A DNA stretch of 64,000 bases from Camelus ferus (Eukaryota), in NCBI RefSeq assembly GCF_009834535.1, contig NC_045696.1, forward strand, positions 7,132,001 to 7,196,000, given 5' to 3'. The translations under genes were made by a program, and so were the position numbers. Of this stretch, positions 25,327 to 25,948 are shown one piece after another. Each line of letters opens with the position of its first letter. The stretch's first letter is position 1. The notes under the pieces are model-generated. The model was not told where the DNA came from. It saw nothing but the letters and a program-made list of their open reading frames with translations, and did no database searches.

Positions 25327-25948
25327 TCACGAGCTAGCTACAGGACTCTGTTGCACACAAACTCCTGTCATGGGGGACTCTTCTCTGTCAGCCCCTTGCC
25401 TCATTGTCAGATGTCCTTCAGTCATGTAATGTGCAGGACCTGTATTAGCAGAAAACTGGTACGTTGGATGTCCAGCTATGCCAGTCTCTTGGCGGGGATT
25501 GGAGTAGACGGTTAAATTAACGTCCATAGCTCCATTTTGTCCAAAGTCCAAGGTATTAGCAGCCACTGGGCGATTCTGGTAGGCCTGATTGCCTTGATTA
25601 CCAGTAGAGGAGGAAGATGTGGAGGAAGAAGTAGTTGAGGAAGACAGGGATGTCATGGAGTGGTGACTATGGCCAACCTCCATAGAATCCTGGGTAGAGG
25701 AGCTATTTGTTGGAGAATTGTAGACCCTTGGCCTGGTCCGGTTACCCAAGGCTTGTTGTCCATGGTGGTGGTGGTGGTGGTGGTGGTGGTGGTGGTGGTG
25801 GGAACTGTTTCCATGGTGGTGATGCAATGCATTCTGCTGAGGGGCTACATGGAACGGTTGTTTCTTGAACGGGATGAGTTTCAACAGTGACTTGTGTGGG
25901 AGCTTCAGTGCCTGACCAACCAAGGGGAGCAGGAAATTGCTGGCGCAC
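25327..25948 (-). CDS. DYRK1A: DYRK1A terminal coding exon (VRQQFPAP...His tract...QQSPVASS*), carrying an apparent +1 frameshift at 25855-25857
   Basis: ttccag|GTG CGC CAG. The expected protein is split over two frames (ORFs 25742..25948 and 25327..25923). Length to TGA is 622 nt. Confidence 0.95.
25762..25800 (-). repeat. (CAC)12 CAT trinucleotide repeat encoding 13 His
   Basis: 36 nt of perfect GTG repeat at 25765-25800 on + strand, plus ATG at 25762-25764. Confidence 0.97.

Follow-up and report, generated by a model that had tools for sequence, protein, structure and literature searches.

An extra base in the last coding exon of DYRK1A in a camelid genome assembly: a probable consensus error

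The DYRK1A gene and the frame break in its last exon

Our study concerns DYRK1A, a kinase gene with a role in brain development, which lies on the minus strand of the window, by which we mean the whole stretch of 64,000 nucleotides that was analysed. A tblastn search with turtle DYRK1A (P0007) located ten coding exons between 60548 and 25327, which together span residue 3 to the end of the protein; the exon limits given here are those of tblastn and are not splice-exact. Nine of these exons lie within 32216..60548, at 60548-60348, 54375-54277, about 52327-52136, 48741-48595, 46121-45831 (a kinase exon), about 43330-43184, about 41934-41800, 33124-32816 and 32314-32216. All nine were found without a break, and the frame changes in the last exon only. 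Two features expected of a DYRK1A orthologue are present: the kinase exon is nearest to DYRK1A, its translation (45831-46121) scoring 208 bits to many DYRK1A chains, 199.7 to DYRK1B and 97 to DYRK2, and the C-terminal region carries a poly-His tract and an S/T-rich tail. A third, one continuous reading frame over all of the exons, is lacking, owing to a +1 break at 25855. The exonic parts match the 763-aa form of the protein (solved chain 9krj_A; pangolin P0022, turtle P0007) at 91-100%; compared with this form the window has one extra base between codons 588 and 589, and compared with 9krj_A it has one replacement in the tail, T for A. The window copy is a genuine DYRK1A gene with introns. 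A processed pseudogene or retrocopy, or a wrong copy of the gene, was ruled out as the identity of this locus, given that introns and ten coding exons were found here and that the other three copies in the genome, described below, are decayed. The last intron contains an interspersed repeat (window 27401-28170), which has at least 35 further matches across the genome, with 75-82% identity.

The last coding exon occupies 25327..25948 of the minus strand, a length of 622 nt with the normal TGA included, and is preceded by the splice acceptor ttcttccag (ctgttcttccag). Read on the minus strand it opens with GTG CGC CAG and breaks at GAA ACA ACC G TTC CAT GTA GCC, so that its length resolves into 93 + 1 + 528 nt. 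The 31 codons of the incoming frame (25856..25948) correspond to residues 558-588 of 9krj_A and are identical to it at 30 positions, the single mismatch being the first codon, GTG, which the tool took as M where the chain has V. They are followed by the extra base, a G on the minus strand at 25855, which causes the +1 shift. The 175 codons of the next frame (25330..25854) correspond to residues 589-763, are identical at 174 positions with a His tract of equal length (13 His), contain no stop and show no decay, and end at the normal stop TGA (25327-25329). As the matches end at residue 588 and resume at residue 589, the two halves of the exon abut exactly. The identity of the extra base is ambiguous from the sequence itself, as it could be the G or either of the two preceding C residues; a paralogous copy of the exon (L002) reads GCC-TTCC at this point, which favours a plain insertion of G.

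The consequence of the break depends on the frame that is followed. The incoming frame continues past the break into a novel stretch, then thirteen Pro and WTTSLG, and is closed after 37 new residues by TAA at 25742..25744. The next frame yields thirteen His, followed by GQQALGN ... VASS and the TGA. Both homopolymeric runs are encoded by the same element, (CAC)12 CAT at 25762..25800, which gives 13 His in the normal frame and 13 Pro when shifted. An earlier sequence-only reading of this DNA had proposed a +1 frameshift in the last DYRK1A exon that converts the His repeat into poly-Pro, and re-reading the minus-strand letters confirms that the shift is present in the assembly, as are the 622-nt exon, the TAA and the exchange of 13 His for 13 Pro. 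The length that it gave for the truncated protein, 588 + 37 = 625 aa, is right by homology to 9krj_A; the count of 588 rests on homology, the exons found beginning at residue 3 and no start-Met exon having been located in the window.

Conservation across the break and decayed copies of the exon

The sequence beyond the break is strongly conserved. The 175 downstream codons agree with pangolin DYRK1A (P0022) at 175/175 positions plus one His gap, and show ~95% identity to turtles and 83-89% to amphibians; together with the comparison to 9krj_A, this bears out the earlier claim that they remain intact. The motif ETT(F/Y)HVAP, which spans the break point, is found in one frame in P0003, P0004, P0007, P0022, the Logan-derived ORFs P0027 and P0028, and 9krj_A, and the remaining orthologues align straight through this position. 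The shifted tail was absent from the database proteins examined (none of nine longer matches and neither of two matches of similar length), among which coverage of the exon is sparse, so that its absence is weak evidence. P0027 and P0028 are the only two Logan-derived ORFs that cover the exon and both read ETTFHVAPQQ; one of them has an intron-derived prefix unlike the window, and both may be from other species. No stretch of metagenome contigs matched a degenerate pattern that spanned the break and allowed the extra base to be present or absent; no camelid DYRK1A was present among the 15 listed of the 94 members of one DYRK1A protein cluster; and a literature search on DYRK1A and camel returned nothing on this allele among the matches listed. 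The stretch is represented in 24 public sequencing runs from 13 studies, of which 12 hold at least half of the sampled words, a measure that is not site-specific and is uninformative on the base.

The end of the gene belongs to a duplicated block of ~8.6 kb (24695..33306, minus strand), which comprises the last three coding exons with their introns and ~630 nt of 3'UTR. Within the assembly (2.09 Gb, 2043 contigs) the last exon has three further copies with ~92-93% identity to the parent, all of them DYRK1A pseudogenes: L002 (C32:9811570-9814841), L003 (C32:9542902-9546173) and L004 (C6:593753-597024). The copies match window 24695-27498 at 93% identity, the intron and the ~630 nt of 3'UTR included; the extension of the block to 33306 was traced with one of the three, the interspersed repeat having swamped the search. 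A TAG and a TAA stop are common to all three, two have an extra TGA, and all three lack 27 nt of the His tract. The extra base is absent from every copy, so that the G cannot have come from a paralog by gene conversion. One of the copies matches a partial DYRK1A duplicate annotated in Camelus ferus: over residues 99-212 (114 residues), the protein P0008, named 'DYRK1A-like [Camelus ferus]', agrees at 100% with the translation of L002, so that the genome is that of a camel or a close relative. The copies comprise the same last three exons and introns. They differ from the window exon in being pseudogenes, with the shared TAG and TAA, the 27-nt loss from the His tract and no extra base.

Compared with the window over the 175 downstream codons, the three copies have 9-13 replacements, 2-3 stops and 7-9 silent changes. 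Because the window protein is the same as the pangolin protein here, every one of these replacements falls on the pseudogene side. At the nucleotide level, the extra G is the sole one-base indel private to the window in a ~3.2 kb alignment to the three copies, in which the window has 110 private substitutions. The copies themselves present another picture. L003 is on contig C32 and L004 on contig C6; over 3.27 kb they share 99.45% identity and differ by 12 indels, all of one base and several of them outside homopolymers, against 7 substitutions. When changes are polarised by the other copies, the ratio of private one-base indels to substitutions is 9:3 in L003, 3:3 in L004 and 7:47 in L002; most of the one-base errors in L003 (8/9) are deletions. 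The ratios seen in L003 and L004 are not produced by evolution. Either the two copies arose by duplication very recently, or the region was assembled redundantly and its consensus left unpolished.

One-base frame breaks elsewhere in the assembly

Long conserved exons in the rest of the assembly contain defects of the same kind. The protocadherin N-terminal domain has 61 matches in the genome, 51 of which fall within the clustered locus of contig C3 (50 strong matches and one weak 73-aa partial); the ten non-clustered matches are outside the count that follows. Open frames of 788-996 aa are found in 46/50 of the clustered variable exons, and the other four have frames of 320, 399, 422 and 693 aa. 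Each of these four exons carries one +1 shift and is otherwise intact, its downstream part matching that of a neighbour at 70-97%. The shifted exons are L034, L035, L036 (the same locus as L017) and L038 (the same as L012), at G000:C3 98.33-98.72 Mb. Base-level reading places the extra base at CCGC[T]GAG in L034, at a CA[A]TGTG-like site in L035 and at GCAC[A]AGC in L036, in each case within a conserved cadherin motif and in no long homopolymer; the shift in L038/L012 was located to the interval between two overlapping frames rather than to a base. The four broken exons are either errors or very young pseudogenes.

A denser cluster of breaks is found in BRCA2, whose BRC repeats are spread over three different open frames. 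Exon 11 of this gene (L040, G000:C14:17332000-17338500, minus strand) falls into overlapping or abutting pieces of 399, 657, 201 and 474 aa in frames 1, 2, 1 and 2, which amounts to three frame breaks in ~5 kb. In an essential gene such as this, the three breaks are almost certainly assembly errors. Three other giant exons were whole (SACS, 3854 aa; XIRP2, 3128 aa; XIRP1, 1856 aa). The tally is thus ~7 frame breaks in ~150 kb of long conserved exons, patchily distributed, and 6/7 of them share the +1 direction of the DYRK1A break.

Real frameshift alleles number only some tens in the ~34 Mb of coding sequence of an individual mammal. Set against this figure, ~7 breaks in ~150 kb means that most such breaks must be errors, and on the same allele figure the odds that a break in a constrained gene is an error rather than a real allele are several hundred to one. 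Two properties expected of a consensus error are found for DYRK1A: the lesion at 25855 is an isolated one-base indel without downstream decay, and a like defect occurs in other constrained genes of the assembly above the expectation for real alleles.

Origin of the extra base and its consequences

We consider it very likely that the extra G is a single-base insertion error in the consensus, and that no truncated kinase with a poly-Pro tract exists in the animal. According to this model, the window would hold the DYRK1A orthologue of a camelid-like mammal that is genuine and otherwise intact; the spurious base at 25855 would have entered the consensus as a residual single-base insertion error, polishing having probably been hampered by the three ~93% paralogous copies of the block; and the real exon of the animal would be 621 nt long and encode a normal C-terminus with its 13-His speckle-targeting tract. 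Directly observed in the assembly are the extra G, two halves that abut exactly, a downstream frame that is intact and a like defect in other exons. The raw reads of the animal should, if the model is right, lack the extra G. Short-read polishing is described in excerpts of one source as relying on alignment that is unreliable in repeats, where errors often persist (PMC8812927), and passages of another describe long-read errors that introduce frameshifts and so pseudogenize genes (PMC12007338). The DYRK1A site resembles the residual assembly indels treated in these portions of the two papers in being an isolated one-base indel with the conserved frame intact, in lying in a multi-copy block and in having counterparts in other exons of the same assembly; it differs from them in not being a homopolymer, the commonest error context named there (PMC12007338, PMC8812927).

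Several observations count against an error. The window region is not visibly noisy, with its single private one-base indel, a finding that fits either an error or a real allele; the intact SACS, XIRP2 and XIRP1 exons indicate that errors in this assembly are sparse and patchy; the errors in L003 are mostly deletions (8/9) and the DYRK1A site is an insertion; and among the four broken protocadherin exons there could be genuine pseudogenes of recent origin. The sequence-only reading had also held against an error that the site is not in a long homopolymer, an argument that fails, as the extra bases in L034 and L036 are likewise outside homopolymers. Its more general judgement, that a consensus error or a very recent allele is more likely than a fixed change, is supported indirectly by the conserved frame, the clean state of the other exons and the like breaks elsewhere; the truncated kinase with a poly-Pro tract that follows from taking the letters literally is probably not real.

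The age of the break narrows the explanations to be weighed against a consensus error. A truncation of DYRK1A fixed in the species or genus would free the tail to decay, and as the tail is undecayed the break is not old: relaxed constraint is not seen, there being 0 replacements relative to pangolin in 175 codons that such a truncation would leave untranslated, and all of the replacements relative to the paralogs are on the paralog side. With no change at ~390 nonsynonymous sites, we roughly estimate that fixation would have to fall within <~0.8% of neutral divergence. The base is missing from the old copies of the exon, and its presence in the assembly is the sole point in favour of a fixed, lineage-specific truncation, which we judge to be very improbable. 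A real break that the cell overcomes during expression, whether through programmed +1 ribosomal frameshifting, through RNA editing or by alternative splicing, has still less to commend it and we give it almost no credence. In the solved chain, as in orthologues ranging from amphibians to mammals, the junction of residues 588 and 589 is crossed in one frame, and this continuity means that there is no conserved recoding site here; the break lies in mid-exon, 93 nt past the acceptor, and both halves of the exon are needed. To our knowledge ACC GTT CCA is not among the known +1 slippery motifs.

After the age argument two readings stay, an artefact and a very young allele. A real and very recent germline allele in the sequenced animal, private, heterozygous or rare, would account for a base that is present in the assembly outside any long homopolymer and in a region otherwise free of private one-base indels, and the intact downstream frame is equally expected of a brand-new allele. 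The C-terminus that it would remove is, however, strongly constrained, with 174-175 of 175 positions identical across mammals and ~95% identity to turtles, and truncating alleles of human DYRK1A lead to a dominant syndrome, as passages of PMC5936063 describe. The strength of this constraint, together with the dominant human syndrome, places the prior for a real frameshift within these 622 nt at a level lower by orders of magnitude than the error rate of the assembly, and we regard a young allele as unlikely. A consensus error is the explanation that we prefer, and on present evidence the frame break is not a real feature of the organism.

Were the break real, at least one chromosome would carry a camelid allele for a catalytically whole DYRK1A of 625 aa, in which Pro13 replaces His13 and the final 175 residues are missing, a product whose existence we doubt to the same degree as the young allele itself. 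A stop in the last exon usually escapes NMD. Such a protein would lack the His tract and the S/T-rich tail but would still contain its kinase domain and PEST region as well as the PVQE motif. PVQE falls inside the 31 upstream codons, just ahead of the break; the relevant part of a review (PMC13396826) identifies it as the TRAF2 site and locates it between PEST and the His repeat. The 13-His tract targets DYRK1A to nuclear speckles, according to passages of two sources (PMC5936063, PMC13396826). The break comes directly after T588, a residue that is discussed in part of PMC5936063 as adjoining the poly-His tract, and for which the variant T588N is described there as without measurable effect. 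As a heterozygous truncating lesion of the same gene, such an allele would be comparable to the human MRD7 haploinsufficiency alleles covered in that paper (PMC5936063); it would differ from the pathogenic MRD7 variants tested in the portion concerned, which disrupt the catalytic domain, in leaving the kinase whole (PMC5936063). It would represent a natural truncation at the C-terminus, apparently tolerated, in a gene of strong dosage sensitivity, and would offer a natural test of the function of the His tract and C-terminal tail in a living mammal. If the extra G is an error, as we favour, its significance would be that of a quality flag only: gene models built on this assembly would wrongly present DYRK1A, BRCA2 and several protocadherins as broken genes, and surveys of gene loss in this lineage would be led astray.

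The His repeat is itself a site at which sequences from other sources go astray. ORFs from short contigs (P0027 and P0028 from Logan, P0003 from ENA) end or stray inside the (CAC)n repeat; in P0003 the His tract is down to four His, and Y replaces F589. Short-read assembly is vulnerable at this repeat. Two predicted Chinchilla DYRK1A isoforms, P0004 (X2) and P0005 (X1), leave the normal sequence within the His tract and continue into a Pro/Ala-rich stretch and a zinc-knuckle (PF00098) tail, ~190 residues in extent, which looks like an artefact of annotation or assembly at the His repeat in another species.
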